A DNA stretch of 63,861 nt, the filler included. It is 8 parts of 8 records of this genome, joined end to end, with 100 filler letters (N's around TTAATTAATTAA, not from the genome) between each part and the next. Parts side by side here need not be neighbours in the genome. Positions count along the whole stretch, not along the records: positions 1 to 12,484 come from SRR2962707_1195; positions 12,585 to 18,153 come from SRR2962707_1201; positions 18,254 to 26,972 come from SRR2962707_1203; positions 27,073 to 33,912 come from SRR2962707_1206; positions 34,013 to 40,551 come from SRR2962707_1220; positions 40,652 to 47,468 come from SRR2962707_1225; positions 47,569 to 54,530 come from SRR2962707_1252; 1 more part is not named here. One strand, 5' to 3'. The notes beneath the pieces were generated by a model. It was not told where the DNA came from. It ran no database searches and saw nothing but the letters and a program-made list of their open reading frames with translations. How positions within the stretch are numbered: the first letter of the stretch is position 1; each line of letters begins with the position of its first letter. Below are positions 118 through 54,049 of this stretch, piece after piece. A program made the position numbers and the translations under genes.

Positions 118-3100
118 ATGAGCGCCTCGAATGGTCGGCTGCGCCGACCCATTCATAAAGGAGTGACCTCCTCTTCCTCCTCCTCGGCAGGTAATCCACA
201 AAGTCACGGACACTACACAGTGGCTTCGGCGGCGTACGCTGCCGACAGTAGTAGCAGTAGTAGTGGTGGTGGTAGTAGCAGCAGAAAAGCTGCAGCAAGC
301 CGCTCAGGTTTCGATCCTGCGAGTGGCGCAACTGCCGGTACTACAGCAGCAATGGGGAGTGTCGGCAGGGCATACGCGTATGATAGACACGCTACTGCGT
401 TTTCTGCCGAACTTCGGCCGCTCCCGCATCTACACGGGACCCCCGGGCAGTATGCAGGAAGAATCCACGAGGCTGGTCGTGCGCGAGATGCGCGCCCAGT
501 TGGCACGATGCACACTGGCAACTATGCACAGAGCTATGATCAGCAGAAGCATCACCGGCAGCATCATTATATTCAGCAATCCTCCTTAGGTGCCGGGCTG
601 CAGCAGCCCCCGTCGCGAGCATTGAGACGGGCACAGCCTTGTGAACAGGTCGAGCCTCTATTAGCACTGGCGGAGGATTCCAACGACGATTACTTGACGG
701 ATGACGAGGGCTACTCGACCAAAGTCATCGTGAATCCAGCCGGTAGCGCGCGCCTGGTGAAGCAGCATCCACACTCTGGAGTTCTGCCTCGACCAAGTTC
801 GACGGCATCTTTGTTGGGCGCAGCTGACAAGGGCAACCTTGGCATTCATGAGAACGGAGCAAGCGCATCCAGGGAGCGCAGGGTGAAAGTGGTGGTGCGA
901 TGTCGCCCGGCTTTTGAGGACGAAGTGAGCAGGCCGATGTACCGTCAAATCGTCGACATTCAACAACAACCACCACCTGTTTCTGGACAGCCACGTCGCC
1001 TCGGAGATGGTAAGTCGCTGCATTACATTTGAATTTAATCCTCTCGCTGTGCTTCAACTTCAAAGCAACCCGTGCTTTGACTCGGTTCAGGCCAAGATCT
1101 GTTGACTCTGGACCTACTGGAGGACGGCAATATCCGAGAATTCGGATTTGACAAGTGCTTTCCAAACGTTGCATCCCAAGCGAAAGTCTTTGACACGTGT
1201 GCCCGTCCAGTCATTGACGAAGTATTTGAAGGATTTCATGGCTCTGTTCTAGCGTAGGTGGACCAGTTCACCCGCCCTTCTGTCACTGACTTCACACTCA
1301 AGCACCAGCACCATGACTTGCCTTTGCCTTTGGACTGGCCCTTGCGAACAGGTATGGACAGACAGGGACCGGAAAAACGTACACAATGGGATTACTGGAG
1401 TCGTCGCAGGATTTATTGCCCAAGTCTGCCCAGGAGCGGGACAATCCGTCGTTTATAAAAGACCGTGTGCGTCGGAAGGGAATCATACCGCAGTCACTGT
1501 ATGAGGTGTTTGATCGCATTCGACGGTTTGGGAGCAGTCGCGAGGTCCGAAAATTAAGCGTTGCTTGAAACGCTTGCTTTTGATGTTTTTAATGCATTTG
1601 AACCGAGCTTATCGGGCGTATCTGGCCAACAGGTTGTGGTCAAAATGTCGTTTCTCCAAGTTTACTTGGACTCAGTATATGACCTTTTCTGCGAAGCTGG
1701 CTCTGTCGAAAGTACACAGTCACTGAAAGTGCGAGAAGGACAGGGGGGATTCTATGCTCATGGTTTGTGGAATTTTATGGGCACATAGCGCTGTCTTGGT
1801 CTTCGCCGTGTCGGGCATAAAGTGTGTTCTGCACCTCTGTCACTCCTAGGCCTAGCTGAATATGAGGTGGAATCTTTTCCCGAGGTTTGTGGGAATGATG
1901 TCTGATGACCACTGCGTTGATCTAATGTTTGCCTGTGTTGCCACTCGTGCTGTTGGAGGCTGCCATCCTACCTACTGCGTGTTACGGGTTTCGTGTAGGC
2001 AATCGAGTTGTTAGAATGGGGGCTGCAGAATCGTGTTTTCAGCTCGACGTACATGAATATCACTTCATCGCGGTCTCACACAGTGTTGTTTCTTCGCGTT
2101 TTTCAAAAAGTGTTCCGCGGTCCCGGAGCAAAGCCAACGAACGACTCCCGGCGCTCAACTCGCGACTCCAAGCGTCGTGGCCCGAGCAATGGGGCAGTAG
2201 CTCATACTATCAGCGCTACACTTGCCCTGGTAGATTTAGCTGGCTCAGAGCGCATTAGGCGCACGGGTAGCACTGGAACCGCACTGAACGAGGCCAAAGC
2301 CATTAATTCGAGTCTAGCTGCGCTCGGCAATGTGGTATCTGCCTTAGCGGATGACTCAAGGTCAGTGGGTAGAGAGGGTCGACCGATGAATCTTGTAATC
2401 TTTTTGTGAAGTGCAAAACATTAGTTCTTGTTTGCTTTGTTTGCAATGTTCTTGTTGATTTGTTGATGTTTCCGCCGTATTTCAGGCCGCACATTCCGTA
2501 CCGTGATCACAAGTTGACCAAGATTCTTGCTGACTGCATTGGAGGGTCTGCCAACACTGTTTTCATCACAACCATAGGACCGTCAGACTGGGACTACAAC
2601 GAAACGTTGTCCACCCTAAGTTTTGCGTCACGGTGCATGAACATTCGCGCAGCCCCAATTCAAAACCGCATCGATACGGCTGCTGATCAGTCTGAACTGG
2701 TGCAAAAGTTAAAGGTCCGCAAATGAAGCACTGCCTTTTTGTGTGAGGCCGTTGAATGGTTTCTGTTCAATGTGTGCGCGTATTTTTATTTGCATCCTTC
2801 AATGAAGTATGCACAATGTTGTGGCGTGTCGGGGTGCGGTATAGACGCAGCTAATGGAGTCACAGGACGAAGTGCAGAGGCTCAAAGCACAAGTCCATGA
2901 GTGGCAGTCGACTGCTGCATCGTGGAAGCACGAATACGAGCAGCAATATCAGGCCCTACGCCGTGCCAATGCTGCCAACGCTGCAGCGGTCACTGCCACT
3001 GCAGGAAGTGCGAGAAAACATGTGGCATTCAACAATGAAGGCGCCACTGTGCAAGATCAGCGTGTTGTCGATATTGGTCGGCCGCTGCGGCGGGTGATGA

Positions 3101-5141
3101 GTCAAATGTTTGAATTCTACGACGCGACCCTTGCACGCACGAAAGTGAGTCTCCTACAGTTTTTGAATGGGTCCGGTGCTCACGATCCGAAGCATATGGA
3201 TTCTGCACCCGCAGTAACAGCAAGCTTTATTGCTCGGTCATGGAAGCAGTTGTACGCAGATGAGAAAGATCGCTCCCCCTCCAGGTCTGCTCGCTCATCG
3301 CTGGTGCAAATGGCGTCGGCGCTGGTGTTGAAGCACAGAGCTTGCTTCCCAACTCTAACCTCCGAAAACTGCTGGTGTTGGACGAACAACGAGACGAATT
3401 TGATTTCATCGAAGCCATTTCACGAGCTAGTGGTAGAAGCAGTGGAGATGGAGAAGGCTGTTGCGGCCAAAGAAGCTGCGATCACGCAGCATCAAATACT
3501 GCTTCAGGATATCCTTGCTTTTCATGATCGTGTCTCCGCGCGGCATCCCTCGCAACCGAAATCTGCATCACATCCAAATGCAGGGCATATCCCACAGTTA
3601 TCCGGTGAAGCACGAACAACTCACGCTACCTCCACAAAATCCGAGAACGAAGCTTTGTGTCCATCCCAGACTCGGACATCGACCGTTGTCAGACAACAGA
3701 GTCCCGGAAGCAACAACGCAATCGATCAGTCTCCTCGCATCCCGCACCCTCAATCGCCACGTTTTCAAGAGGTGGCGCCCCTGGTGGTGTCGCTGGACAT
3801 GACTCTTGACGATGGGCTGTCAACAATCGCGTCTCCACCAGCAGCACTCGCTTTACGACCTGACCTCACCCCAGAACGCGACAGCGCTGGGAATACCCGA
3901 ACAACAGGGCGAGGGTCCAAGTCTGCTGCAAAGGCCACGGAGTTTGTTTCGCCGGTTGAGAGAGCGAAAATTCCAGTTCCGACGCTACAACCATCGCTCC
4001 GATCAGCGCCCGAACAAGTTTTGCAGAAAACGTCAACTTCTCATCCCGACGCTCGTTTGCAGCCTCCGTTGTCCAACACAAACCCAGCTGATAGATCTGC
4101 GCGGCTGCCAAAGCCACGCGACACAACCGCACAGCACGAGCATGGCAGGTCCATCGGGCAGCACACACCAAGGCTTACATTGAAACTTGAAGACTCAGAG
4201 GTCACAGATTTGACCAGCGTCGCCAGCCCCTCACCAGACACGGACCGGCGGTCCAGTGGCAGTGAGATGCACTCCCAACCGCTGTCCCTCAACTCTGTGG
4301 TGTCAAAGTCTGTGGCATCCGCTGAACCAGGCATTTCCGCAAGCACCACCAGCGCGCCCATCGAGGGAACGCCCTCGCCTAAACCTTTAATCAAACAACG
4401 GGAGAACGACGACGTCAAGGCCCCGTCGTCGCCTCAGGACATCATCGAGTCATTAAAATGGCAAGTTCGAAACAGGTTGGAAAATCTGAAGCTGTCCATG
4501 GCTGAGACGCATGCGCACGCAATGGCTCAGCAGGCAAAGTCAGCATCTCGCAGATCAACGCCACCAACGACTGCCGCCTCGTCGACCAGGTCGGGGTTTG
4601 ATGCACTCATCCAGCGCACCCCGCCTCCTGTAAACATCACGCTGGACAATCGCCCCGGGGTCAGCGACAGATCGCCTCAAAGCCACAGTCAAAGCAGCGG
4701 GATCGATGATGTCGATCATATTGAAGCAATTGTTGGGGTTCGAACGAAACGAGTGCAGCTTTTGTCGGGCGAGGTGAACACTGTGATCCAGTGAGTGGAT
4801 TACAGCTCGACGCATTGCCAATGCTGCCAGCTTCGTGTTTCCTTTGCTCTTGCTTTAGTTTTGCATATCGCCTGGTTGCAGATACAAGGTTCACTGGGAA
4901 AACTCCGATCCGTCGGAAGACGAATGGTTCAATCGCGATGACTTGTTGCAGGACTTTCCGGACACAGTGCGTGGTGTGGGTGTATGGCCGACTGCGCTGT
5001 GCACGCTGGTACTGCTTTGCGAATGTGTAAACTTGGGCGTAAAGCTGGACACTTTTTCGTGAATTTTCACAGGTGCATGCCCATGAAAAGCAGCGCAGAC
5101 AACGACTGGGAGTCTCTGCATCAACGCGAATCCATCAATAG
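118..5141 (+). CDS. Kinesin motor protein with a low-complexity tail and C-terminal chromodomain-like module (about 10 exons)
   Basis: Spliced motifs: VKVVVRCRP, FGFDKCF, P-loop AYGQTGTGKTYTMG (across intron 1254-1351), switch I MNITSSRSH, switch II LVDLAGSER, INSSLAALGNVVSAL, HIPYRDHKLTKIL, ETLSTLSFASR. Last exons join via GT-AG introns 4791-4881 and 4967-5072; stop TAG at 5139-5141. Confidence 0.92.
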
Positions 5142-5269
5142 AAGACACTTTCATCATTGAAATTTCAATTTTAAAACAACGCGGAAAATTACATTTGGTG
5201 TACTGCATTGATAATAAGTGCCATTACGCAAGCCGTGACAAAGTAGTTGGATTGTCAAGCCACAACAAG

Positions 5270-8200
5270 CTATTCACCATTCACCTTTTCTGCACCACCA
5301 ACCTTTGGAGCGGTTACTCGTTTCAACTTCTCTATGCTCCGCGAGGCGTCTTCTTGCTCCCATTGTCGAAGCCGAGCCGCAACTAAGTCATTCGCTTCCA
5401 TCAAGATTGGCTGCTCCTCCGCGCAATTCAGAAACGACGAATAGCCCAACGATGGAGCTGCGTATCTGTTTTGCATAATGCGGTTGAGGTGATTGCCAGC
5501 AATCAAATTGATGTGTTCGTAAAAAGTCAGCCAAGTCTGTGGACTTACTTAAAGGGCGATTGGCCGAGATTCACGCGGACAAAGACGTTTCCTGCAACGC
5601 AGACGAGCGGCGTGCAACGAGAGCTGTCGTCTCTAGGGTCCACGTCAGCCTGCAGGAGCAAAGCCGGAAACTCAAGCTCGAGTGTCAAACAACCCAACGT
5701 GCACCAGAACAGCAAGCACTGAAGCAAGGTTCATTGGTTGACATACCATGGAGAAACGCTGCCAGTTGTCGCCGTTAACTGAAACTCTCATAGTCATGGC
5801 CGCTGGGTTAAGAGCGACCCCAATCACGTCCAAGCGATTCCATGGCACGGTTGTCGCAATTGGTCCTAACCGGTTTTGGGGCATGCTCGATGTGCCTCGG
5901 CGATTGGACTCACCGAACCGTTCTGCGTTTCGCGTGTCATCGTACCCAGATTTGAAGTTAGGCGATGACTTATTTCGTTTGTGAGAAGGGTGCGCCTCAA
6001 TCACAACACCTGACTGAGACCGTTTCTGCATGCAATCTGCCCAGACACAAACACAGCCATCGCTCAGAAACTCTACAGGGGACTCTAGCTGGGCAAGTGT
6101 AAATCGCACTGCGCAGCGTGTTTGACGCACCTTTGACGCCGTTGTTTGGAGTCACATCCCCCTGCGCACAGCGCAAAGTTTGCCCAAAGGCGGCCATATG
6201 CTCAAACCCGGAAACTAAGAACGCAGCCCGGTCAAACAGCGCGCCGCTGGGGTCCCCAATATCGGGGCGGTGGGATCCCGTTCGGAAACCACGAAATGCC
6301 ACGCCAACAAATAAATTCGCAGTATCGAGATGCCCAGTGCCAACGAGGGTCACCTCAAAATAGCACTTGGCCGGCCCAACCACTGTCATGGAGTCAGGAA
6401 CGAATGAGCAAAATTCGTCCTGCAAGCTTTCAACCTGGAAAGCGCAGACGAGACAAAAATCACCAATGGACGTTATGTTGTGGCAACTGCAACACAAGCT
6501 AAATTGTTCCTTGATTGAATACGGACTTCGACGTTCGGTGTTACTCTGGCTGCGCCTGGGGTTCCTCGCACTCGTTCCAGACTGAATCCGTAAATGCGTC
6601 GCTGGCTAACGTACGACATGTTTTCTCGGTGGCGAGCGTCATCAAGTTGAGCAGATTCCTGCAATGCATGTGACCAAGGCACAAAACGATTAACACAAAA
6701 ATAAAATGACCCGGCCCCGTCGCCGTTATGAATCAAACCTGCCGCTCACCTGTGACAACCGCCGGCGATCCCCACTAAATCCAGGAAAAACATGTTGCCT
6801 GAACTTCGGGGACAACTGAAACACTTTACGGTCACCAGACACTTCGCGCACAGGTTCGCGGTTCACGTCGGCGGAGCGGGAAGACTTATCCGCACTGGTA
6901 GCACCGAACGTTCGTTTCGACCGATCTAACGGAGAATCGTACTTGACTTCTTTGCGTGTGCGCCGGTTTCTGGTGTTTTCGCCGAAATTTTCGGCGCTAA
7001 GAGACGTCGGTGCGAGCTGCTGCAGCCGCTTTAATTTCAAACACCCGATAGGCGCTGGGTCCATCGCAACCCCCAAACCGTTCAAAGCGTTGCGGGGCCC
7101 ATCGCCATTCATCTTAGCCTCGCGGCGCATAGTACCCGGTGACTTGTGACGAAGGGTCGACGGCAGAGTAGACATGGCAGAGCCCCCTGCCTGACGCCAT
7201 CCGCCAGAAAAATGCCCAGCCTCTTCATCGTCCGCCTGGGTGCCTGGATCCCAAGGCGGTGGCGAACCTGGCACGACAATGGATCCACCAGAGTCCACAC
7301 GTCGATGACGCCCAGCTGCATTCGCTGAGGCAGGGGCGTTTTGGCGAGAGCGTCGCCTAACACGGCGTGTGGGTGTTCCGGTCGAACTATGTTTTGATCG
7401 CACGGATTCACTGCGAGGAGTGGATTTCAACGGTCTACTCTCGCTCGAATCGTACTTCCGAGCGTTCCTTGAGCGCGATTTCGATAACGCCGGCGATGGC
7501 GAAGGGCTCGGACGAATGTTGCTTTTGTTGAGACTGCGCTTCGGGCGCCCTGGGCTAAACTTTCGCCACGTTGTTGGTGGATCGATGCCACCTTCACTGC
7601 CCACCTCCTTTGCTGCACTACTGCCGGTTTCATTTCGACTTGAAACATTGTTGAGAGCTGGAAGCGCGGAGTTACTTGGGCGATGTGTGCCATCGCGAGC
7701 CGCGGACGAGGTCACATTTCGACTCGACCGTGGATCTGGGATGTGAATGGTGTCATTTTCGTATTCAGTTTGTTCTTTGACCGGCACCTCACTGCTTGCA
7801 AAAGGCTTCACGATGAAGGTGCCCCCGAGTGTGCCATCGCCATCAATATCCCCCGTCGATGAAGTACTTGAGCTTGCCGTGGATCCTTCGCCTTGGGCAT
7901 TTCCCGGGCCTGGTGAACCGACGGTAATATTTGAGAAATCTACCACGCGCGCAACATCATCTGAATCATCTTGATACCTGCGATCACCCACCCAAACAAA
8001 CACATGAACAAAACAAGTTGCAACGTCACCGTGGTCCACACAAATTGAATGGTGACTTACATGTCTGAGTCGAAGTCAAACGCACTCCCTGTGCCAAGCA
8101 GTGACCCCTGATTGTCAGACCCGAGATTGTCGGTTGAGTAGAGATCCCCTTCAAAAGAAAGCCTTCAAACACGTGCAATCGGCCATACACGTCAGACAAA

Positions 8201-11200
8201 ATGTGTACCAACATGTAAAACAAGGGCTCCAACATGTTGCCACGACATACGGCAGAGATTCCTGGTCCGGGTCCACTGAGCCCGGGGCACCGAGGCTGTA
8301 AAAATTGAACATCTCGGCTAAGTGCGGGCACCCCGCCGCAGGGATACTCTCCTCGCCAATATCATCGCTGTCACTGTCGGCAAGTGACCCAGCGACCTTA
8401 GATCCAAGGTGCAAGTCCAATTCATACCTAAGAATGCCCGAACGAGGGTCACACTTCCACTCAAGCAAGAGGACGATGTTTACTGAAATAGTATTGAAGC
8501 GACGTACTCGTCGTCAGTGAAAGGCAGCGATTCAGCATCGTCGGTGACGGGGCCTTGGCTACTTTGACCAGGTGTCGAAGCGCCGACATTCGAACGAGCA
8601 TCGGTCGAAGCAGTGCCACCGACCGCACGGCTAAGTGTAATGACAGAAACGCTGCTGTCGTGGCTGTCGCCTGCACTCTCTTCTTCGGCCTCTAAGACGC
8701 CCTCGAGACGCGCGGGTTGTGGGGCGGTACCAGTGAGTTCCTCGCCGTCGCTGAGGCCAAAAGAGAAATCAGATTCATTGCTGTCGGCGCGGAGCTTTCC
8801 GCCTGACAGCAACAAACCATCGCTGGGCAGTGGACCAACGCCGTCTCCGTTGACGTCTCGCTTTGCTTCAAAGGTGGCAAGAGTTGACAGACGGTTGTTG
8901 GCGGCGTGGTGACGAAGTGACCGTCGGTTCTGTATCCGTGAACGGTGGCGTTGCAAACGCTCAGCGCGGTTTGGTTCCAACTCCGCGACCGCGGACGCTA
9001 ATACAGGATGGTCAAGCAGCTGACTGGCAGAGGGCCGAAAGCGCGGATCTTTGGTGAGGGCCTGAGCGAGAAAATCGTTCATTGCAGGCGTGCGCGACGT
9101 GGGATCCAGCAGTTTCGGTGCAGCCTGCGCGACGAACGTTGAATGATTGCAAAATGTTGAGATTGTTCAAACAAAACTGCCAAAATGCAGCCGGACGGAA
9201 AAAAAACTTCCGTTCGTGAAGACGCACTAGGTTGGGGATACGTATCATCGCCATGTATGGAGTCCGAAACTTGTACGGCAGCTGAGTTTGGCAAAGCTCA
9301 ATTAAAACAATTCCGAAGGACCAAATGTCTACTTTTTGGTCATAAGCTGTGCGTGAGGTGCCTGATTGCAGTACCTAAAACGCAAGCACGACAGCCCAAG
9401 GAAATGGGAAATGCAAGGTGCACTCGACGCAAAAAAGGATTCGCTTTCGAAAACTGATGAGCGTTGGGGCCCAGCCTCACCTCGGGGGCGGCAAAAACTG
9501 GGGTTCCGACCATTGTGTCAGCGAAGCTGCCAGAACCGCTTGATGCATTCAACTGGCGTGACACACCGAAATCGGCAATTTTGACGCAGCCACTGCTGGT
9601 AAGAAGTACATTGCCACCCTTCAAGTCTCGATGAATGATTTTTTTGCTGTGGAGAAACTCCAGACCTACGCGTTACCAACCATGCAACGCAACGTGTCTC
9701 AGCCATTCAAAACGCGGCAACCGGCAGCGCGTGACACACACGGAAAAAATACGCAATATGCTCAAACCAAGGAGAATGAACGTAGAAATGCGGGTGATGG
9801 TTTCCTCCTTCAGCGAACCCATGCGCCCATCTTTTTCCCAGGCCGTGTTGATGAAGTCTAGCAGGCTGGAATGTTACAAAATGTACAACGCGCAAAATTA
9901 AATATCATGATAGGGCAAACGCGTGCGAGTGGATTTTAACTTGACAAACGCATGACAGACCTTCCGCTGTCACAAAATTCCATGATGATCCAGAATCGGT
10001 CATTCTTGCGGCGCTCGCTGCACAAATGAGCATCGAGGTACTGCGTAACGTAGGGACTCTGGCACATCTACAGACACGTTAACGTCAGGTGAAGGCAAGC
10101 ATCTCGAGAGAGCAGTGCGAGGGCCAGAAGCGAGTCAATAAGCAACCAGTCTTCTCGCTTGCCTGCAAAATGCGGATTTCATTTTCAAGCTCCTTTTCTC
10201 GCTCTTCACGATCGTGATTCTTGGAAACCGTGACTGTGCATATCTTGATCGCCACGGTTCTTGAGAGCTCTGAATCAAAACCCTGACGGCAAATTGGCGA
10301 GTCGGAAAAGGTGCAATGTCAGTACATAAATACATGAGAACTCGAGGGAAATCCTCCATCAAGGCAACGTCTCGCTCATGCTTGGTTGCGCACCTTGTAA
10401 ACTCGGCCGTAAGCACCTTCTCCAAGTTTCTCGTGAAGGTGGTACCGGTTGATCACATAGTCAAGTTGGGCACACGGCAGGCCGTACTGACTTTTATAGC
10501 GCGTGGGCGATTTATGAATGGACTCTTCATCGGCGCTGCCGTCACCATGACTGTCGTCATCGTGCATGATGCCTTGCATAATTTTGTTGACGAACGCAGT
10601 CGTGCTGTCTGGCTCTCTGCCAGGCGACGCTGGACCCACGTCAGGGAGAGCTCCACTGCTTTGCACCGCATCGCGTGAGGCTGGATCTCGAGTTCGATCT
10701 CGCCAGCGGTCTGGCTCCGGCGTTCCTATTGAGAGCCCCTCCGCGAGCAGTGCTTGGCCTGACAAGCGCGGCGCTTTCATTTTGCCCGGACGTCGCGGCC
10801 CTGCCCCTGGTGCAGGCTTGCCATGTGGCGATGGGTGTCGAAAGCTGAGTCGGCGCACTTTGGCTTTTCCTGGGGTGCCTCCTGGGGTGGGATGCATGCG
10901 ACCAGGGCTTGGGTGTATCCGACCAGGACTTGGGTGAATCCGACCAGGACTTGGGTGTCTTCGACCAGGGCTTGGATGCACTCGGCCCGGACTAGGGTGA
11001 AGCTGGCGGCCTGGGCTCAGCGGAACCTACACGCAATGTAAACTTAAAAATGAGCCAAAGTGGGACGTATTTGACAAACCTTTGTGTACAGTGTTTCCAT
11101 CATGACCTACCCGATTTGATCTCGGAAACCGCTTTTGCCTTGACCCTCTAGACCGACCCGGCGACGGCCCGTACCCACTGCAAGTGGGGGGCGGCCCGCT

Positions 11201-12400: not shown

Positions 12401-12484
12401 AAAAAAGACAAAAAGAAAGGCGAAAAGCAACTCACCCACACACACAAACACACACACTCCACCACTCCACCACTCCACCACTCC

Positions 12485-14319: not shown

Positions 14320-17816
<3,497 letters not shown>

Positions 17817-34232: not shown

Positions 34233-37200
34233 ATGACGACCACGCACGTCTCGCAGACACGCTCCGATAGTGGTGGTCACAAGGTGCGAACGAAAATGGA
34301 CTGATTGAGCTTGCTGCGCTGTGCTGGCGAACAACATTTTTTTGTCAAGCCACTTTTTCGTTGCGGGGTGCATTGTTGTAGTTCTCAATGTTGGGGGGAA
34401 TTTGTTTTAATATCTCTCCCTGAATTTGTTTTGCTGCTTCTGCTGCTGTTGCTGCTGTTGTTGGTGGTGGCGCTGATACTGTTGCGGTGCGTCTGCCTGC
34501 AACTACGTGTGCGTGCAGCCGATATTTGAACTCGAAAACGACTATTTCGCAACGTCTCGGGATCATCATCAGCAGAGCCCGCGAGGTGGCTTGTTCTCAC
34601 CAACGGAGACGAGAAAAGAAAGGTCGACAGGGATCCAGGAAAGCGTTCCCAAAGCAGCTGGACGACGGCGGAGCAACAGTGATGGGAGTAGTCCGAGGAA
34701 CAACGGCAGCCCCATTAATAGCGAGGCAAAGTTTGCCTCGTTATTTTCACCAGATTTGTCAAGTAGTGAAAAGGCCCGAGATCTACGGACTCGCTCCGAA
34801 GGAGCACCGGAGGATTATGCGCCAACCTCCTCTGTAGCGATTCCTACCGCCGCTGCAGATTCAAACCAGACAGAAACGAGCAACAACACTGGTGAGACAA
34901 CTGCTGCAGGTCACTACGGCGCTTCCCTTGACACGTTCCAACTTGGGACGCCTGCCGAAAAGTCGTCGGTGCTATTAAGTCAACAACGGGACCGAACGAC
35001 GTCTTTGAACTTTCGCCAACCCTCGACAGACAGTGCCACAATTGCGGCGGGCTTAGGGCCAGGTGCTGGGCGTTCGGAAGCATCGAGTGCCAGAATACGG
35101 AAAAATACGCCACACGTTCGCAGTCCTTCGACGAGGAGTGAAGTTGGTGCTTCAGAGAGGACAGCTGCTTCAGTAAATGGCGACGATGCGGCTCTTGCGA
35201 GTAGTGAGGCTGGCCCCACCAGTGATGCTGGTAGCAATGGGTATCACCTTGCGGCGTTCCCTGGGGATCTGTCGCCTACCCAACAAAGGTCCTTGAGCTC
35301 ACGTGATCTTACTTCCTATTTTGGTGTGCAGCCGCGAAGCCGTCAAACATCTCGGTCAGTTAGTAACACTTCGCCGTCGTCAGCTCAAGCTGCCGCGGTT
35401 GTTGCAGCCAACATTGGGATGCGTGCACGTGTTCCTTCCGTACGCGACATCATTGCAGCCAAAGACATCTCCGCTACCACGCCACTTTTTCATCAAATGT
35501 ACGATGGTGAAAGGCTTTCCCCGAAGCCACAGTCATCGCCAAATTTGGCGCGCCTGAACCGCACGCATCACGTCAACCGCAGTGCTTCGGACGGACCCTC
35601 GTTGTACCGCAACGATGGCGCTGGAGGCCCAGCGGCAGCGGCCGCTGCAGCAAATGCTGCAGCACGTGCACGCGGTGCCGGTGGCGGAGGCAGCGCCATG
35701 ATTCCCCGAAGTGGCAGCGCTGTGGACTTTGGAGCTGCCGGTGCGCGCAGTCGAGCAAGAGGAAAAAGCAGCAGCCAACTTAGTCTTAGCGATGCAAAAC
35801 AAGCTTTATACCAGCAAAGCGTGTCGGGAATTTTGATCAAGCGTGGTTTCGGTGGGCTACAGCGCTGGAGACCGAGGTTTTTTGCGCTGCGCGGCCGCAT
35901 CTTAAGCTACTACACCTCGCAGGCAGCGGCCTTGCGCGCTCCCGGACGGCCTCGTGGACAGCTCGAAATTCAAAAGTTGACAAGAATCCGGCGATGTTCA
36001 TACGGTCCTGACCGTCAATTTGGCATTGAAGTACTGCCGCCCCCAGTGCATCCACGTCCACCACCTGTGCCTGAAGAAGAGAAAGCCAGAAATGAAGGTG
36101 CTGGTGGTATCAATGGCAGCGGTGGCAGCGCTGGCGGGCACAACGGTACTGCACCAAGCCGACCCCGAGCAGCCAGCACAAATCGGACAAGGCGTGGTTC
36201 TCAAGTAAAACAACCGAAGCAGCCCCCGCCATGGATGATGGTGGCACGGCACGAGGCGGAAAGGACCGCGTGGCTCGAAAAGCTTGTAGCTGTGATCCGA
36301 CTCATTGAGCGGGTGGAAGAGCCAGCGACCCTCCGTGGCCTTGGCAGCGTTCACGATCATTTCAAAATGGGAAAATTCCTCGGCAAGGGCCGGTTTGGTG
36401 TAGTGCGCATGTGCACGCACCATCTCTCGGACAAGGTGTTTGCAATCAAAATCATCAACAAAAACAAAAAGCGTCTAGTGTCCCAGATGTCGTCAAACAA
36501 GCACCTAACTGTGGATGCTCTCGACGCTACCTTGCAAAATGAGCTTCGAGTTTTGCGCTGCATCAAACAGCGTATTGGCACAAAGAGCCCATTCCTTTGC
36601 AACACATATGAGGTATACGAGGATAGTCACCTCGTGTGCATCGTGATGGAGTACCTTCCGGGCGGCGATCTATTTGATGCCATTATCCGTCACGGTAACT
36701 TTCAGGAATTGGACGCTGCTCGTATTGCTTTGCAGCTGACATCAGGGCTAAAGTCGCTCCACTGGGCGGGTGTCATCCATCGTGATATGAAGCCAGAAAA
36801 TATCCTTTTTACGGCCGCGCGTCCAGACTCTGGTGCGATGAACGTGAAAATAGCGGACTTTGGTTGCAGTCTTCTCATGTCCAATAAGAAAAAGGCGAGA
36901 CTGAGCCGCGGGACGACAACTTATTTGAAGCTGCGGCAGATTGTTGGAACCCCTGGATACATGAGCCCAGAAGTCCTGGAACATGGGCACTATGGTCCAC
37001 CCTGCGATGTTTTTGCCGTTGGTGTAATCTTGTACGTAATGCCGGCCCTGTTCAAACTTGATGAGCTTCATTTGAGTGTTCTGCACTTTCTGCCGGTCCC
37101 AAATTTGCCGAATGTGTTGCGTATCCCGTGGTCTGATGTACTTGCTGCCTTCGTGCCCGGATCGGTTGAATACCTGTGATGGTATCGCGCCCCCAATTGT

Positions 37201-38178
37201 CCTCACCAATCCCCACAGGTACATCATGTTGGTTGGGTACCCTCCTTTTTGGGGAAAAACGAACGAGGAAATTTTTGCGCGCACCAAAAGTGGCAAGGTG
37301 AATTTCTTCAAGTCCGATTGGATCCACATTTCCTCCTCGGCGCGCCGGGTTTGCCGTGGAATGCTTAAGCTGGACCCTGACGAACGCTTAACTCCTGGGG
37401 AAGTGCTCGAGAATAGTTGGATCCTGAACCCACCACGCGGCACAGGGATCACCGCTGTACCCGAGCGCATTAAGATTCTGGATCAGATGCGGCGCGAACA
37501 AAAGGCCAGCACAGCTGCTTCGGATGTTCCGAAAACAGCTGCTGACTCTGCCCTTACAGGTCACTCTGTAGCACCTACTACGGCATCAAATACGCTGGTC
37601 ACTGCTGATGCCGCGCCTAGCACGGATGGTGGAATCAAAACGACAGGCGAAACGACCAAAGCCTCTTTGGTTGAGGGTGATAGCAACATGTCGTTGACGT
37701 GTGAAGCACAAGTTGGCGGAGAACCTACTTCAGGTGCACCTGTAGCAGACACAACATTGAATGTTAAACCAGGCAAGGCAGATACACCCGCAATGGGGGA
37801 CGCATTGGACGATCAACCCGGCCCGCTTCCAAGCACACCGCCGGGTTCTGGCACAAACGACATGTCTCCCCTCCAAATGGGCTCAGGTGCAACGCTCTTC
37901 ACCCAGGTTCGAGTTGCTGCTGTCCTGTCGACTTCAGCCAATCCAGGCACCACGCTTTGTGCTGTTGAAGGTTGCATTACACTGATGCGTGTGTGTTGCT
38001 GTTTGCTTGGCGGTTGTGGCAGGATGCAATCAAACTTATTCGAACGGCAACACCTCGAGTGTCTCGCCGGTTTCAAGTGGGTGAAGATGCCGCGAGTGAA
38101 GAAGATGATGCCGACAAGGAGGTGGTTGACGACGAAGAGCTTGATGATGCACTTGTGTATGACGAGATGACTGTGTAA
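34233..38178 (+). CDS. PH-domain CAMK-family Ser/Thr kinase (4 exons)
   Basis: PH: SGILIKRG..WRPRFFALRGRILSYY..GQLEI..ERTAWLEKL. Kinase: LGKGRFGVV, FAIK, VMEYLPGGDLFD, HRDMKPEN, KIADFG, GTPGYMSPE, GVILYIMLVGYPPF (across intron 37032-37218). First exon (ATG 34233, AAG|GT) is inferred from an in-frame splice. Confidence 0.9.
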
Positions 38179-42671: not shown

Positions 42672-45600
42672 TTAGCGACTTGCTTCAAGCCGCTTTTTGG
42701 CTCTGTCGTTCTTCGCCCCATCCAGCGCATACCTAAATTGCACCCGCAAGCATCCAAGGAACCACGAAAACAAGAGATTTTAAATGTGCAACAGGAACAG
42801 GCACGTAGGCGAGTTTGTTCTTTTTCCCTCGGCCCTTGCCAGCATTCAGAAATTCAGGACTCACCGTCGCCGCTTCAAAACCTTGGTCGAGGCGGCCCGG
42901 CGGCTCTCCTCGACTGCCTTGCGCTTTCTCATCTCTGCCATTCGCTCGCTTTGTTTGGCCTTCCGTTTGGCAGTTTTGTCATTTCGGATCGTGCGCAGTT
43001 GGTGAAGCATGGCCTTGACTTTTCGTTCCTCACTTGTCCCGGCCACAACTGCGTGTCGAAGTTTTGCGATCGGCTTTTTCCGGCGCGCTTTCGCCTTTGC
43101 ACGAGCAGCATCGGTCTAGCCACATTTTCGAAACATATTTTGCGGTGCATGCGGTCAGATACGGTTCCAGACAAGTATGTGTGCCGCCGCGAAGAGCAAA
43201 AGCACAGAAACCGTGCAAATCACGAACCGCAGCCGGTGCCAGCTTCGGCTTCGACGCAAACGGCAGCGCAGCTTGGAGCTTCGCTGGGACGCGGAGGGCG
43301 GAAAAACGTTTCTCAGTTCTCACGATAGGCTTGTAAGTCGAATCCTTCTTTACTGGAATGGCGAGCTGGCGTTCGTGTCGCAGCTGACCGGATAACAGGA
43401 GCCCAGTCAAAGGTAATCGAAAACTGGAGGAGTCGCAAAGCAGCAAAGGAGCAACACTTCTCAAATCACACGCATCAAGTCACGAACTTCGCCAGTGCGC
43501 TTCATTCCCGCCCATTCAGCATCTTTGACAAGGTGAGAAACCACTGGATTGTAAAACCGTTTTGGCTCCACTTGAACCCACGATGTGAGGAAAACAATGT
43601 CTGACATGAGAACCTTGTCTTCGAAGGTCGCGCGGAAATTTCCTTGCTGACCGATTGCCTTTTTGATCTGACCACGGATCTTCGACACTGTTCGAACTTT
43701 GGCTCCCTCGAACCGAGCCACTTCCAAGTCGGAAGTGAACATATCCTTCACAAAGGCCGTGTTTTTGAAAATTTTGTATCTGGTTCATGTGAGTCGCAAC
43801 GAAAACGTCAACGCGACTCGGACAACGAAAAATGCTACGACCCGTTTGTTGCATGCAATGCGCTTGCACGTACGGGTGCCCAACAAGCTTGAGCTTTTTC
43901 ACAATTTTGAAACTGCGATCCAGCTCCAACACCACACCCGTCGCAGCGACACAAAAGTCTTTGCGTCGGTGGGCCGATGTCGTTTGAAAAGCCATCACGC
44001 CAGTGTTGGGCGCTGCCATACCGCCGTAAATCGTCGCAATGCAATGCATGTGCTCTGGGGTGTACCTACGGCCAGATCAAATCCCAGCGAAAAGCGTGAA
44101 CAATCTTCGCAATATTGAGGCGCACAGACCCGTAGCTGTTCACAGTGCAACATCTGCTGGCATGGCCACGCACTTTAGCATACGGTTACGCTCGCCTCCG
44201 TTGTCTTCAATGCAAAACAACGGCAGTGACTGGAAACGGCGCCAACCGATACTGAATACAAGGGGATCCTGGTTTTTCAGCCGTCGCTTGAACCAACGGT
44301 GAGCTTTGAAGCGCATACGAATCAGCCCAAGTCCTTGCTCGTGGGGGAGCAGACCACCAGCAACAATTGGTTGGTTTTTTACGTAGTTTTGAAAGAACTC
44401 TGGTGGCACACCTGACACCTCCATGCGAACGTAGTGACCCGCCTTGACACCTTCAAGGGCGACACGCTCTGTCTCCGAAAGTCTGGCATGTACACACCAC
44501 AAAACTTGAGTCTGGAGTCACGCAACACTCAGATTGCAAGTTGTCGCATGCAAACAAGTACCAACATGCGACACTTTTTGTTTGAGGAATATCTTACCCG
44601 TCGAACGCCGTGTCATTCAGTTCCTTTTGGTCGGAGAGTTTGTCATGGACCGCCTTCATATGCTCGTCAAGTTCGAATTCTTCGACTTTGTCTTTGGCCA
44701 CCTTCTTTACTTTGTCGTATTCGGAATTGAACTGGGCCTTCTCAGCAGCCTTCGCCGCCCGAAGCTTCTCCCGCTCTTCGCGCCAGTCGGCGTTGTAAGG
44801 TCCGGCAGTGGGCGCATCGTCGTCCTCCCCGCTGCTGCTATCGCCACTTTCACCATCATCGCCATCGTCGCTACCATCACTGTGTTTGTCAGAGCCATCA
44901 GCGTCCCCGCCTGCACTTGTGTCGTCACCAGTGTAGCCAGTGACCAGCTCCTCATCACTGTAACCCAAGTCGCCCGCTCCATCTTCTCCCTCTGCAGCTT
45001 CGCTCCAGTCGCCGGTGACAAAGCGGTTGCGAATGGCTTCTCGCACGTCTTCGTCGTCCCAGTTTCGAATTTCAGCTTGTTCCCGTGTGACTCTTGACGA
45101 ATCGATGGCATCAATGTCCACAATCGCGTTTGTTGTTTTCTTTCCGCCGCCACTGCTTGCACTGCGCCCTGTGTCTCCGTACGATTTCACCTAAGAGCAC
45201 CCAACAAGCGTTTAATCATTGAACCACTTCACCCATTCCCCATACAAAACAACAGAACGGCATGAACATCATAACGCACTTTGAAAAAATTATCGCCGTC
45301 ACTGCTGCTCCCATCGTCAGAGTCAGAGTTTCCCGAATCACTGTCTGCCCCTTCATCGCCGCGACCAGACCGACCGTAAACAAGTTCCATCAAGTTCACA
45401 CGCGTACGCTTTCGTTCGGCAAAGGCTTCGGCAGCCTTGGCGGTAAGCGCCTGCTTCCATCGGGCGCTACTTTCTACACCATCGCCGCTTTCTTCACTGT
45501 CGCTGTCGCTTTCCCCATCATCGTCGTCACTACCGCTGGCGTCGCTGCGCGCGTCTCGACTCGTATCGCCATTTTCTTCGCCGTCACTCCCACTTTCTGA

Positions 45601-47661: not shown

Positions 47662-50600
47662 TTAGATTGAAAGCGAGTGGGCACTTCCCTGCCCCACTGA
47701 GTCTTGCAGGCCATCCTTCTTGGCCACGGATCGGGCGGGGCTGGCGGTTTGCGACGAAGGAACTGGCTCGGGAGCAGGCATGACCTGTGAGCGCTTTCGA
47801 ACAAGCGTTTTGTGCTTCGCGGGGGCAGAAGAACGACCAGGATCGGAGCTGCTTGCTTGACCCATTGAAAGACTCTTCTTGTGGCAGGCCTGTTCGTTTT
47901 TGGCGCCGCACTCTTTGCACCGGGCGTCCAATAGACTTGTTCTTTCGTACTCATGTTCAGCATCTGTTTCACTGTGGGCCTGTGGAGACTTTGGACTGCT
48001 ACCAGGCGCCCCATTAGGGACTGAAAACGCCTGTTTACCAAAATCGACAACAATTTTTATTCAGGATTGACTTTGGGCAAAGATGAACCAACAAGAACGT
48101 TTCAACATGGCAGGGGGTATGCACACCTTTTCAAGTTTTGCTTTGGTGTCGGTCGCGGACTTGTCCATGGCAGTTTTAGCCTGCATCATGCCATCGAGCA
48201 CAAGGGAAACATAATTCGTTTTTCCTGGGGCACACTCGCTCGCAGCATGCATCACAGCGTGTCCAAAAATAAGTAACGTACTTTTTCAAGTCCAGCTTTT
48301 GTCGCCGCAACGGCAGCAGCAGTCGTGGCTTTCAGATCCGTGACGAACTTGCTGTCGTTGATAGTTTTCTGCAGCGATTTGGCAGCGCGATTGACCAGCA
48401 GCAGCCTCAGACTATGAGCACTTGCAGACAAAATGGTCACTGCATCTACAACAAGGTTGTTCACAGACCTTGATTTCATCCTTCAGCTGATTGCGGTAGT
48501 CGCTTTCAAACACTTTAGTCCAAAAAGTATCAACCTGTGCTGCAGCTTCTTCCTAACCACCACCACAGCGCATTGTTGTGAGCAGCGTTTCGTAGCAATG
48601 ACAGTTTGCAAACTCGTACCGACATTCTAGCACGGTATTCACTCTACTGAGAACGTACCCGGGTTTCTGTTTTCGGAAGCGGGTCGAACAGGTGAATGAA
48701 TGACAGCGGAACACGTCCTTCGGCTCCATTGTCTTGGTTTCTGACGCGAACCCAAGTCGAGCCAGCAGCAAATTGGGTCTCCAAAAACCTGTAGCAGCGT
48801 CACAGTTTTTAAATCCACATGCAATTCAGGGCAGAATTGAGTTTCTTTTTAAAGTTCAAAGTGATGCAGCTGAACAAGGTGCGATGGCCCGCAAAAGATC
48901 ATGCCGAAAAGGCAAAACGTACGTCTGCAGCTGAGCGCTGCTCATGCGGGCGTCCTCAAGTTTGCGGGCAGTTCCGTTGGGGAAATGCAAACTTTTCGGG
49001 TCCCCATACTCGGCAAAAATGTGCCGCAGCGCAGAACCGCTTTCCTCGCCCACTGCGTCCTCAGGGGCTTGGATGTCACCAGCTTGCAGGCAAGCCAGGA
49101 ACCCGTCGGGGTCAATCTGTGCAACGGACGGACGTTCACCGCTACCAACAGCACCACCCACAAGTTCCACAAATTTGGATTGAGCACGGGCTATTTGATC
49201 CTCTTGCGTGTTGTAAACCTCAAGAATCTCAACGTTCGCATCTTCGGGCACAGTTAGTTCGCCTGCATTTTCAGCTGTGAAAGCGAACAAAGCTTTCCCC
49301 TCAACAACTTTTCGCGGGGCCTTTTTGACCTGAACAACCTTGAACTCGTCCTGTGTTGCCTACCAACGGAGGTATGGACCCACAAACAACTCACTAAGTT
49401 AACGATTGACTCACTGGAGACGCAAGAGATGGTTTCTGCACAGAAGGAACCCCACAAACAGCAGGTAGATAGCGCACGAACTTTAAGCTGCTGGCCAACT
49501 TTGCTGGCTTTGAACTCGGCAGCCTTTTTCTTCCACTCCTCAACCATTTTAGCCTAAGCCGACCAATATCGGTACCAGCGTTATTATTCAATGCAACGAG
49601 TGCGGCGCTGCACAACGCGATAGGCATCATTCGAAAAGCTGGTTCGCACCTTCACCATCTCTGCTTTGCTTTGAAGATTCTCTTTCGAGAACGTTTTCTT
49701 CAACGCTGCCTTAAACTTGTCCATGCCAGCCTTGGCTTTGTCGGCAAGGGTCTTGGACTGCTCACGCATGTCTTGCGCCAGCTTTTCAAACTTCTCTTTG
49801 ATCAGGACTCCGGACTCCGCTGCCTTCTTATCCTGAATATTCTATGCAAAAGCAGCATCAAGAAGTCAACTGTGGCAGAAATAGCAGCATGTATGTCTTC
49901 TATGTTCTGAGTGGGTCATTTGCCAACCTTTTTAAGCTGTTTTGTTGCCCGTGCGAATTTGGCCTTAAGCTCTTTTTTCTTTCTGTGCCTCGCTTTCTCG
50001 GCTTCTTTCTCACGTATCTTTGCCATTTCATTGTTGACAGATTTGGAGAGCTTGTCCGCTAGTGTCTGAAGGCCAACCGATTCCACGAATATTAGTTGGG
50101 CGACTGGAAGAATCGCTCAAAAACACTTTATGCACGCACAGCGCAGGGCGGCGGAGAGGGTACCTTTGCCTTCGATACCATGAGTTGCACATGTCCCTCG
50201 ATCGACCGCTTTTTTGTCCGGTGTAGGTACGCAATTTTTTGAAACTGCAGCACAGACAATCCCCCGTTGGGTCCAAGCAGCACAAACATTTAAACCAATC
50301 CCTCCGCTCATGCCAGCATGAAGTGCCGAAGGTAAACAGCAGACTTGGGATCACGCACTTTTTTAAGGGCTGTCTTTTTAGCCTGTCGACCACGAAACAC
50401 AGTTTGGATTTTGAGGGCTGCCGAGTGATCCACGTTACTCGAGTACCTGTGCACATGGAGAAAAATGTGACACAAACTCAAGCAACAAAGACTAGGCAGA
50501 CAAGAAAAACAAGAAAAAACTGAACAGCGTACGTCCAAACCCGTAGACGATCCGCTTTTCGCGCAGCGATGCGGCGTCGCACGGCCCCTTGAATAAGTGT

Positions 50601-53600
50601 TGCTGCAAGATTGTCATAGTCGGAATTATACGTTTTTCGAACCCGCAAGCCATCAAATTGCTTGCGTTCCTGACGACCACGAAAGTGCTTCTGAATGAAT
50701 CGAGCGCTGTCATGTGCCTGTTTGTTGCAGTTGTGATGACAAGGACAAGAACATGGGGATGGGCAACGTGGTTGCAACGATCAGTGACAGCATTCATACT
50801 GTCACACAAAACGTGATCGTACTTGGTAGGCAACGTGCTACGTACCCATTCTTCGCGTCGTTGTGCGATCTGCTTTTTGGACATCCCTATCTCCTGAAAC
50901 CAGCGTTTTACAACGTCAACCTTGCGCTTGTTTTTCGGTTTCGTCTTAATTTTGATTTTTTCCTATTGAAAATAGTATGATAGTATGTCCATCACAATGC
51001 ATTCAGTTTGCGTTTTGCCGAAACGACACCCATTTGAAAAAGATCTGACTAGATGCAGAAGTTCTCTCTTTGCAATCAGCAAGTCAAAGCAACACAACAA
51101 ATCTATCCTTGCTTTCGCACCAAAAATTGCCGCATTTTAATCTTGCTATTTCGATTCTTTGCAGACTCGGACTTGACTACGACATCCTTCTTCCCTTCGC
51201 CAAGAGCGCCTTTCAGCAAGTTTTCTTGCGGGACGAGTCATCAGACAAATTCATCAGCCAAATCGGAGTGACCAGTGACCAATATGCATCAAGGGCGAGA
51301 AATTGCAAAACGCCTGCAATCGCTGGGACACATTGGGATTCTGTCTACCAGCTAAACATACCAAGCGATCGTTTGACCTTATAGAGCTTCCATGGGACTT
51401 TGGTGTGGCCAAACTGATCAGAGAGTGTTTTTTGCTTCCACAGTAAGCGCATCCACTCTGGCTCCATCTCAGGAACCTCGACTAAAGCGTTCCCATCGTC
51501 GTAAACATACCTGCACAACGCAGAAAAACCCGGACCAGCATATATAAGCCAACGCATCGACCAATCAGCGATGAAAAACTTGGAAAACGTCCTCGCACAT
51601 ACTGAATCAAGTGCGGAAATGCGGTTGGGTCACCCTCGAGGTCCTTATCAACGTCAAGGACAGTCGCAGTGTAGTGCTTGATGTTTTCTTTGCCACTCTT
51701 TCGCATGCGCGTAATCGTAAACGAAAAAACCATCCCCACAGTTACGCGTTCTTTCTTGCGCCGCTCCTCGTCCGCAGCCTCCTTCTTTTCCTGACGTTGT
51801 AGTCGTGCTGTTTTGCTGTCCAACCCCTTGGCTTGATCCAAGAAGTTCATGAACATTTGGCCGAGCGACATCTTCCCTGACTGAGCAGCCTTTCGAAACA
51901 GAAAATCACACTACGGATGAGCGCCTGCCAACGTCTGACAAAGGAAATAATAGTCTCCGGGCCAGGGTCCAATACGTACCCATACCGCCACACAAAATTC
52001 GCAAAATTCGATTTGACCACTGTTGTCAGCGTCGCACATTTCCATGAACTGCTTTGCCCGCTCTTTCGACATTGTTCCCTCGTATGTCCCCAAACTCCGC
52101 AATGCAGTTGTTAATTCTTCCACGTTCATTGTGCCACTGTCATCAAAATCATACCTGTTTCCAGATGCACGAACCGCAGGATGTCAGGCGTCACCAGGCA
52201 GCTGCGCAAGACACACACTGGCAGTACGACCATAAATCGACTGACTTATCAAACAGCTCTCGAAACCGCTTCAGCTCTTTTGGTGTAAATTCTGTTTCAA
52301 AGTCGTCAGGAAGATAATACCTGCAGCGACGATGCAATGCCACACACTCACTCACACACACACACACACTTTGCTTGGCGACACTGATGATGGGGCGCTT
52401 CCGCCAATCATGTCAAAATGACCAAAACTCACCGCTGCTCGTCAGGCAGCACCCATGACGTTTCGTGGGTGCGAATGTTGTAGTAAAACTCTTGGTCATT
52501 TTCGATGGTCTTGCGCCAAATCGGTGGCATGCGGCGGCGTAGCTTTCTTGCCATTTTCTGACGAGTGTTTGCGACAAGGTCAGCGAGAGATTCCTCAAAC
52601 CTGCACGACCAGAAACGAATAGTCAGGGGTCCAGCAGCAACATTCTCGCAGGACCGACACAACAAACGAGACAACATCACAAACCGAAGTCTTGCATTCG
52701 TAGAAAACTTCGTTGCAAAAGACTTGATTGCCTCTCCCCATTTTCCGAAGAGCCCTTGGAAGAGTTTTGAGTCACTCATTTTAACATACATTCCCGCATA
52801 CCTAAAGCCAAGAAAGTGTGCAGGGGGTTCTAAACTAAGAAAGCGCGTAAACCGCGCTTTCCTCCTTCGCATGCAACTGCTTTTGACACGACCACATACT
52901 CTTGGAAGTCTACAAAGCCGCTGCCATCTGCATCTACTTTAGCAAAGATTTTCACAAACTGCGGTTTTGAAAATTTGAAGCCGAGGTTCACGAATGCCGC
53001 TTCCAGTTCATCAGCACTTATACTACCTTTCAAATGGGCAAACGGGCGGAGGTGTGAGCCACGCTTGCCCGTAGACATGAAAGGCCTACGACATCAACCA
53101 ATGCGAAAAGATGAACGAAAGACAGAGTGCTGGGCCCCACCTGAGTTGTCAATGTCGAAAGAGTCAAATTCACGGCGCATTGCAATAACTTCTTCGGGAG
53201 TGAAGTGCTTTGCCAGCTCCAGCGGTAGAAATGTCCGACTTCCAGCAGTCGGCTTCTCCCATTGGGTGTGCTGAGTTATTACGTTGAAATAATACCTGTG
53301 CACACGATCAATGGCGATAATTGTAGAGTGAGCTGCCTCGTTCGTGAACGTCTCAACAAGAAGCAATTGAGAACGTGGTCATGACGTGAGCTGTTCGAGC
53401 ACACTACGGATTGCAACAACAGCTGGTCCGGAGGCACACACCGCTTGCCCTCAGGAGTATCCGCTGAAGACCACCCTTCCGGCAGTTCTTCATACACCCG
53501 GAATTTGTTCGTCATTGCTTGCCGTCCATATATTTTATGGCGAGAGCCATCGTAGTGCCAAGCTGTCACCTTGTACCTGCAAGAGTCATGAAGTTCATTC

Positions 53601-54049
53601 GCAACGGTAAAGCCGATCATACCACAATCAAGGCAAAACATCTCCCGCAGCAGGTAGCGCGCAATGCAAAGGAGAGCAAACCTAAAAGTTGTGTTCTCTG
53701 CTAGGTTTTTCTCGTCAAAGTAGAGCGTTGATTCCTTGACGAATGTCTCGTTCTTCAGCTGCCAGGTGTAGATGGGTTCATCGACCGGAGAATCGGGGTC
53801 TACCTGCTGGCGAAGCCGGGTAATGCGGTACCCGTCCACTTTGAAGTCTTCCGGCGGGTCCCACGTCACTCGCACGCTGCTTACACTGCCACACGTAGCC
53901 CGAGCGTTCCGAACTGCAGACTTGGGATCCAGCAGCTTTTCTTTATCCTCCGAGTCTTTCTGAGACTTTGTTGCGGTGGAAGCGAGGTCGTCGTGATACC
54001 AGGCAGCGCCTCCACCTCCACCGCCTCCGCCTGTACTTCTGCCAAGCAT
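47662..54049 (-). CDS. Large multidomain Ca2+/calmodulin scaffold: FN3, WW, EF-hand pair, WW, EF-hand pair, IQ motifs, coiled coil, split SH3 (more than 20 exons)
   Basis: FN3 VRVTWDPP..VDGYRI..LAENTTFRYKVTA; WW LPEGWSSADTPEGKRYYFNVITQHTQWEKP and WRKTIENDQEFYYNIRTHETSWVLP; EF loops DIDNSGSISADE, DADGSGFVDFQE, DFDDSGTMNVEE, DADNSGQIEFCE; IQ motifs IQKHFRG, IQGAVRR, IQTVFRG. Exons around 50900-51380 are not fully resolved, so a two-gene model is not excluded. Confidence 0.75.

Follow-up and report, generated by a model that had tools for sequence, protein, structure and literature searches.

The origin of spliceosomal introns and the bias in intron phase are old open questions, and both are raised by a stretch of 63,861 nucleotides (hereafter the window, meaning all of the DNA analysed; 8 contigs joined by N runs, ~52% G+C, 64 kb sampled): why do its phase-2 introns so often sit one base before a tyrosine (Tyr) codon, so that the downstream exon begins with R-TAY? 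Profile and homology matches place eukaryotic genes throughout the window. The closest BMS1 proteins are those of oomycetes (60–62%) and one EukProt protein (66%), and the source organism is read as a marine, stramenopile-like protist. The R-TAY bias is confirmed and lies far beyond chance. Our preferred reading, to which we assign a probability of roughly 0.45, is a lineage-specific gain of U2-type introns with a short target duplication of ~4 bases at R-TAY sites. In this 64-kb sample, two findings support lineage-specific, site-directed intron gain as a general idea: a single clean comparison with a relative, and a weak duplication footprint at the intron boundaries.

An earlier note on this DNA had listed 18 phase-2 introns placed before R-TAY, and its coordinates hold (Table 1): all 18 intervals start with GT and end with AG on their strand, 14 are followed by GTAY and four by ATAC, and TA occupies exon positions +2 and +3 in every case. 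Fourteen of the 18 are backed by a transcript-like contig, by homologues or by Pfam profiles, while the other four (4791-4881, 5466-5548, 7978-8250 and 8428-8507) are placed by open frames on either side and in-frame stops within the intron. The transcript-type contig (4033 letters) comes from run X2, which is presumed to be RNA, this label being a guess that is not on record. Relative to the contig-7 gene it leaves out 23 segments, each bounded by CT..AC, and the DNA run X1 contains no joints at these 23 places; contig 7 is the one contig among the 8 covered by such read-level junction evidence. Fifteen of the 23 joints are listed, including 50447-50532 and 51511-51602, and the other eight, five of which are claimed R-TAY introns, were placed through the intron count of 23, the exon length on record and the open frame. 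One joint is ambiguous and corresponds either to 52601-52684 (phase 2, GTTT) or to 52558-52641 (phase 0). The GT..AG ends and the 23 spliced joints identify U2-type introns. No RTATCCTT was found at the intron 5' ends, the donors read GT-[AG]-N-G-T and the R-TAY motif is exonic, so that U12-type introns do not fit.

In the other genes, introns were placed with our own spliced protein-to-DNA aligner, whose intron score holds no exon-side term. BMS1 has eight introns, four of them in phase 2 with exon starts GTAC, ATAC, GTAT and ACTT, and MCM8 has 12 (nine in phase 0, two in phase 1, one in phase 2). The fatty-acid hydroxylase, for which a single guide protein (P0273) was available, has three well-flanked phase-2 introns followed by ATAC (the claimed one), TGAT and GAAC. 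The contig-7 gene has phases 12:2:9 (here and below in the order 0:1:2); of its nine phase-2 introns seven precede GTAY and two precede GTTT, and none of its 12 phase-0 introns is followed by GTA. Our own ab initio gene finder, which recovered 9 of 15 known introns in its first version and 19 of 22, among 26 predicted, once improved, was used as a lead only. The validated set comprises 49 introns, with the kinesin intron 1254-1351 not yet among them.

Across these 49 introns the phases are 25:6:18, and R-TAY follows 13 of the 18 phase-2 introns vs 1 of the 31 in phases 0 and 1 (Fisher 4.0e-7). Against a background of 0.65%, taken from 9324 codons of long open reading frames (ORFs), the binomial probability of the R-TAY count is 3e-25. 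Adding the kinesin intron gives 14 of 19, in agreement with the share of 18 in 26 reported in the earlier note. The remaining 5 of the 18 validated phase-2 introns are followed by GTTT (twice), ACTT, TGAT and GAAC. One phase-0 intron (9375-9480) also has a GTAC exon start, the sole GTAY start outside phase 2. Occupancy is very high: among purine-wobble Tyr sites, 7 of the 17 in the contig-7 gene and 3 of the 7 in BMS1 carry an intron, about 40% in these two intron-rich genes. A motif scan of the window likewise found 22 YAGGTAY vs 8.7 +/- 3.05 in shuffles and 16 YAGATAY vs 7.4 +/- 2.3.

The BMS1 alignment was used to retrieve 80 metagenome loci, one of which, L002, is part of a seawater-metagenome contig with a BMS1 frame open from 393 to 3572. 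Its BMS1 exon 1 is 91.6% identical to that of the window over 311 residues, and the exon DNA is ~77% identical. Two phase-0 introns occupy identical positions in the two genes (MKRTGE|LRHE and LAPAA|), and six window introns are missing from L002: 46173-46271, 45191-45279, 44483-44597 and all three R-TAY introns. At the three R-TAY sites L002 runs on uninterrupted as CAA|GTAT, CCC|ATAC and ACG|ATAC. Moreover, the Tyr at K|YTPEH (alignment position Y904) is invariant in 24 of 24 sequences, which together with the uninterrupted Tyr codons of L002 indicates that the codon is older than the intron. The aligner was run on the other 79 loci, and no intron was found there at any of the six positions. 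The R-TAY introns of BMS1 thus look lineage-specific, and parsimony favours gain in the lineage of the window. An intron shared by the window (43384-43487) and L002 (3462-3538) is still similar over ~20 bases at the 5' end (GTNNGTNACTTGNTGCGT), the rest having diverged. In MCM8, the ORF fragment P0216 (89% identical) departs from the window protein after SKAKQV, at the window's phase-0 intron 14545-14642, which its source probably shares.

The 195 raw intron calls over the 79 loci reduce to 48 distinct introns that are well flanked and free of read-through. Their phases are 36:7:5, vs 25:6:18 in the window (chi-square P 0.009), and GTAY follows none of the 36 phase-0 introns in these metagenome BMS1 loci. 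Four phase-1 introns are followed by R-TAY, all by ATAT and with near-identical flanks, and are read as one conserved position. Two loci with diatom-like BMS1, L027 (8679-8772) and L029 (2007-2087), each have an intron in phase 2 that precedes a Tyr codon by one base. The junctions are AG|G-TAT and AG|A-TAC, respectively, at R|YLKYTPEH, three codons upstream of the K|YTPEH intron of the window, and the two introns appear to share one position. As the pattern is confined to single cases in the 79 loci, the excess seen in the window is not general.

If introns were inserted with duplication of the target, the first intron bases should resemble the first bases of the following exon. Each intron position +k was therefore compared with its own downstream exon position +k, and the expectation was obtained by permutation. 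Among 23 introns with GT-starting exons, matches at +3 to +6 number 38 vs 25.3 expected (P 0.0002); over +3 to +8, the same 23 introns give 51 vs 37.8 (P 0.003). The 20 validated introns with GT exons give 44 vs 32.4 (P 0.0046) and the 29 with non-GT exons 66 vs 65.4 (P 0.48), and at an earlier stage, with 31 introns validated, position +4 alone gave 14 vs 8.8 (P 0.028). Examples of intron and exon starts are GTATGT/GTATGT, GTATG/GTATG, GTTTG/GTTTG, GTGAA/GTGAA and, twice, GTAC/GTAC. The corresponding test for a duplication on the 3' side was negative. These matches are suggestive of a short target duplication, ~4 to 6 bases and longer than TA. Tandem duplication, in which the intron would be a copy of the downstream exon, was tried as a candidate and rejected, the match not extending further (31 vs 30.0 at +5 to +10).

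Under the preferred reading, ordinary U2-type GT-AG introns would form a lineage-specific class whose origin or survival, recent in the history of the lineage, was almost confined to sites N N | R-T-A-Y, with an existing Tyr codon starting one base further on. DNA would have been inserted with a ~4-base target duplication beginning at the G of GTAY, and the upstream duplicate would have turned into the start of the 5' splice site. The branch site and the AG would come with the insert, and splicing would restore the original codons. The ATAC starts would reflect a later silent G-to-A change at the wobble base, and the bodies of the elements may since have diverged past recognition. We infer the direction of gain, the insertion mechanism and the length of the duplication. 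The interpretation in the earlier note is supported in part, for site-directed intron gain, and not for a TA-targeted Tc1/mariner element.

Several observations weigh against this reading. The call of gain vs loss rests on one relative and one gene, and L002 also has A at exon +1 of the 43780-43873 site, a poor fit with any model requiring a G from the host at that place. No similarity between introns beyond that of shuffles was found in an all-vs-all comparison of 34 introns from the 64 kb (best 26.8 bits vs up to 25.4 in 5 shuffles), as the earlier note had remarked; inverted termini are likewise missing (mean terminal match 3.3 vs 3.3 in shuffles), and the R-TAY introns have no class-specific motif, donor or acceptor. 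GTAY donors are found in 7 of 18 R-TAY introns vs 8 of 16 others by our own count. The footprint is modest: ~8 related tests were run, permutations were pooled over genes, earlier subsets were weaker, and the contig-7 gene by itself gives 17 matches vs ~13.4 in a hand count. Under a simple model in which donor tetramer frequency is multiplied by coding availability, the three phases should share introns as 0.39:0.35:0.27 and GTAT should make up 3.7% of the starts in phase 2; the observed GT exon starts are 5:2:13 by phase, with GTAT 7 of 13 in phase 2. GTAY is available to the three phases as 30:31:38 without the repetitive contig-4 ORF and as 31:48:113 with it, so that 11 of 12 GTAY starts in phase 2 are an excess (P ~2e-4 or 0.017), and the strictness of the phase-2 bias lies beyond what motif availability accounts for.

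The strongest rival, which we nevertheless consider unlikely, is a fixation bias driven by splicing and requiring no target duplication, in which new introns survive only where the flanking exon aids their recognition. The earlier note had denied that the sites are classic AG|G proto-splice sites, and indeed an upstream exon ends in AG at 1 of 18 phase-2 introns vs 10 of 25 phase-0 introns, the latter fitting the AAG|G form. Since phase-2 introns can rarely have an upstream AG, for which AGN codons are needed, they might rely instead on a downstream G-T-A-Y read by the spliceosome or a splicing factor. In line with this, 17 of 18 phase-2 introns have a purine at exon +1, R-TAY donors are slightly stronger (T at +6 in 16 of 18 vs 10 of 16 other introns), intron bodies are alike in both classes, and the diatom-like BMS1 of L027 and L029 has its own phase-2 intron before Tyr (AG|G-TAT). 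However, 5 of 18 phase-2 introns splice without the motif and a GTA exon start occurs in just 1 of 25 phase-0 introns, so the motif is not required, and a fixation bias predicts neither the locus-specific boundary match nor the absence from L002.

Somewhat less probable again is a frame-dependent process of intron gain that has not yet been described, in which new introns are made or tolerated only where exon +1 is a wobble position and a Tyr codon comes next. A dependence on reading frame beyond availability would imply that the +1 base is changed or made anew in the event, or that the event is coupled to an RNA- or translation-level step, in which respect it would differ from plain DNA insertion with duplication. 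Such a process would have filled ~40% of the R|TAY sites in intron-rich genes after the sister split off, with long neighbouring genes left untouched.

The absence of the introns from L002 could also be the result of loss, the R-TAY introns being older than the split and having disappeared there and in other lineages, for instance by recombination with complementary DNA (cDNA), in which case the pattern would record an old episode of gain or differential retention. L002 BMS1 has no private intron, five of the six introns that it lacks lie side by side (46173 to 43780), the outcome expected of a single cDNA conversion, the intron bodies are fully diverged, and a precise loss would leave just the A that both share at exon +1 of 43780-43873. 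We nevertheless regard loss as improbable: parsimony speaks against it, the six positions being intron-free in all 79 other BMS1 loci, a minimum of two losses is required because two retained introns lie between the lost ones, and loss leaves the original placement before Tyr codons unexplained.

Least probable is the TA-targeted Tc1/mariner model of the earlier note, in which an element inserts at G^TA, the host G and the duplicated TA form a GTA donor, and the element ends in AG-R and replaces the host G: although Tc1/mariner elements and Stowaway-type miniature inverted-repeat transposable elements duplicate TA, TA stands at the junction of all 18 introns, R-T-A-Y is palindrome-like with ATAT missing, and many transposon superfamilies act as introners in documented cases, GTA donors (9 of 18, the same count as before) are no commoner than in other introns (7 of 16), which removes the direct support for such a wave, no inverted termini are seen, the locus-specific match reaches +4 to +6 and hence past a duplication of 2 bp only, and the intron-less L002 has A, not G, at 43780-43873. 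With G^TA available to the phases as 81:94:113, 10 of 12 GTA starts in phase 2 are moreover an excess (P ~0.002); the phase-2 prediction of this model accounts for the ATAC starts and not for the GTAY starts.

How does gain with a short target duplication compare with known systems? Huff et al. in 2016 reportedly described introner elements of Micromonas pusilla and Aureococcus anophagefferens. The likeness lies in a marine protist (Aureococcus being a stramenopile) and in one splice site co-opted from a duplicated target, whereas the duplication is of 3 nt, serving the 3' AG, in Micromonas and of 8 nt in Aureococcus, each has thousands of similar copies, and neither is described before Tyr codons. 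In Daphnia, Li et al. in 2009 are said to have attributed intron gains with short flanking direct repeats to the repair of breaks. The introns of the window resemble these gains in having putative short direct repeats at both boundaries and no recognisable mobile family; we know of no codon- or phase-specific target for the Daphnia gains. With the classical MAG|GT site the R-TAY class shares a G, often followed by T, at the start of the downstream exon, but it lacks the upstream AG and adds A-Y at +3/+4. No description of phase-2 introns before Tyr codons was found in the literature searched, the supplements of introner surveys lying outside that scope.

The closest parallel is offered by the introner-like elements of Symbiodinium and Polarella, which bring the 3' splice site with them and gain the 5' one through duplication of 4 nt, GHNN (bioRxiv 10.1101/2020.10.14.339549; Gozashti et al. 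2022, Fig. 2B legend). As in the elements of Symbiodinium and Polarella glacialis classes 4/5, the exon tends to start like the intron, the 3' site would lie in the insert, the introns look lineage-specific and the phase would be set by the recruited motif. These families have recognisable copies, the GHNN duplication and often inverted termini, in contrast to the window, where neither copies nor inverted termini are seen, GTAY (Tyr) is the motif and phase 2 is favoured beyond motif availability. The preprint also calls a form with an 8-nt duplication similar to Aureococcus and derives introner phase bias from the recruited exonic bases (bioRxiv 10.1101/2020.10.14.339549). The Micromonas duplication of 3 nt supplies the 3' AG (PMC11282704), and the modes of splice-site recruitment by introners are described as wide-ranging, with the boundary match as a test for introner duplications, by Gozashti et al. 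(2022).

Table 1. Introns placed before R-TAY, the phase-0 intron with a GTAC exon start, and other features of the window. Ab initio, found by our gene finder; X2, transcript-type contig; CLF, joint placed by intron count, exon length and open frame.
Feature	Position	Strand	Exon start	Support and remarks
Kinesin, phase 2, A|YGQTG (P-loop)	1254-1351	+	GTAT	Kinesin Pfam profile 39-79 up to the final upstream residue, then 81-117 from residue 1 downstream
Phase 2, Q|YKVHW	4791-4881	+	ATAC	299/59 open codons; also ab initio; weak Chromo match downstream
Phase 2, claimed	5466-5548	-	ATAC	60/64 open codons; in-frame stop inside; no homologue found
Phase 2, claimed	7978-8250	-	GTAT	87/299 open codons; ab initio has same acceptor, but splits it into two introns
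Phase 2, claimed	8428-8507	-	GTAT	219/91 open codons; ab initio has same donor, different acceptor
MCM8, sole phase 2	14935-15011	-	GTAT	Spliced alignment, 5/6 guides; flank scores 41/27
Fatty-acid hydroxylase, phase 2	25515-25624	-	ATAC	Spliced alignment to P0273; flank scores 41/19
PH-kinase, phase 2	37032-37218	+	GTAC	Pkinase profile 2-190 upstream, 188-263 downstream; also ab initio
BMS1, phase 2, R|YALDG	42733-42864	-	GTAT	Spliced alignment; no counterpart in L002
BMS1, phase 2, P|YKIF	43780-43873	-	ATAC	3/3 guides; no counterpart in L002
BMS1, phase 2, K|YTPEHMHC	44066-44173	-	GTAC	3/3 guides; no counterpart in L002
Contig 7, phase 2	50447-50532	-	GTAC	Intron also GTAC; X2 joint listed
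Contig 7, phase 2	51511-51602	-	GTATGT	Intron also GTATGT; X2 joint listed, 6 letters fit either side
Contig 7, phase 2, K|YDFDD	52155-52245	-	GTAT	CLF
Contig 7, phase 2, R|YYLPD	52321-52432	-	GTAT	CLF
Contig 7, phase 2	52802-52899	-	GTATG	Intron also GTATG; CLF
Contig 7, phase 2, R|YYFN (WW domain)	53296-53441	-	GTAT	CLF
Contig 7, phase 2, R|YKVT	53577-53681	-	GTAC	CLF; X2 piece resumes at 53680
Kinase gene, phase 0, APE|VL	9375-9480	-	GTAC	Motif scan, translations; Pkinase profile 110-169, then 171-198
Kinesin gene with weak Chromo match; kinase gene	contig 1			
MCM8	contig 2			
Midasin-like AAA protein; fatty-acid hydroxylase	contig 3			
PH-kinase; RING/WW protein	contig 5			
BMS1	contig 6			
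EF-hand/WW protein	contig 7, 47737-54263	-		
Long intron-less ORFs	contigs 4 and 8			
Intron-poor ORF	18475-24684	+		Open frame
Intron-poor ORF	27926-33601	-		Open frame
Intron-poor ORF	55973-63646	-		Open frame

Intron density follows a bimodal pattern in the window: three ORFs, 1891 to 2557 residues long, are intron-free or contain a single doubtful prediction at most, and the EF-hand/WW gene of contig 7 marks the other extreme with 23 introns in 3.8 kb of coding sequence. The 1891-residue ORF of contig 4 (27926-33601) has a weak match to the antifreeze beta-roll LbR_Ice_bind and strongly biased codon statistics that dominated the first coding model; it is repetitive and contributes 75 of the 113 in-frame G|TAY sites. 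Homology search returned no homologue for a 449-residue exon of the contig-1 kinase gene, and an Rfam scan found no RNA gene, hence no small nuclear RNA, in the window. At the end of contig 7, over 54326-54530, the summed word depth of DNA run X1 reaches 6753 vs ~45 elsewhere and there are loose ends, which suggests a high-copy repeat. Within the contig-7 gene an exact 10-base repeat, GGTATGTTTA (gene strand), brackets a 149-base exon at 51353-51362 and 51502-51511, one copy lying at the acceptor junction of intron 51511-51602 and the other where the following intron, 51225-51361, has its donor junction. Chance would give ~0.7 matches of this kind in the region by our own estimate, and a repeat search of 51300-53700 gave 11 short two-copy families, within the range of chance.

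Known introner cases have been recognised by the similarity of their copies. The trace found here consists instead of a site rule (phase 2, one base before Tyr), presence or absence relative to a sister, very high occupancy and a weak duplication footprint. If this holds true genome-wide, a burst of intron gain would be readable from its target sites alone, even after the elements themselves have decayed. The phase-2 bias, which is the opposite of the usual phase-0 excess, would then provide a test of the proto-splice-site theory, and R-TAY after phase-2 introns would be a simple marker with which further such lineages may be found.

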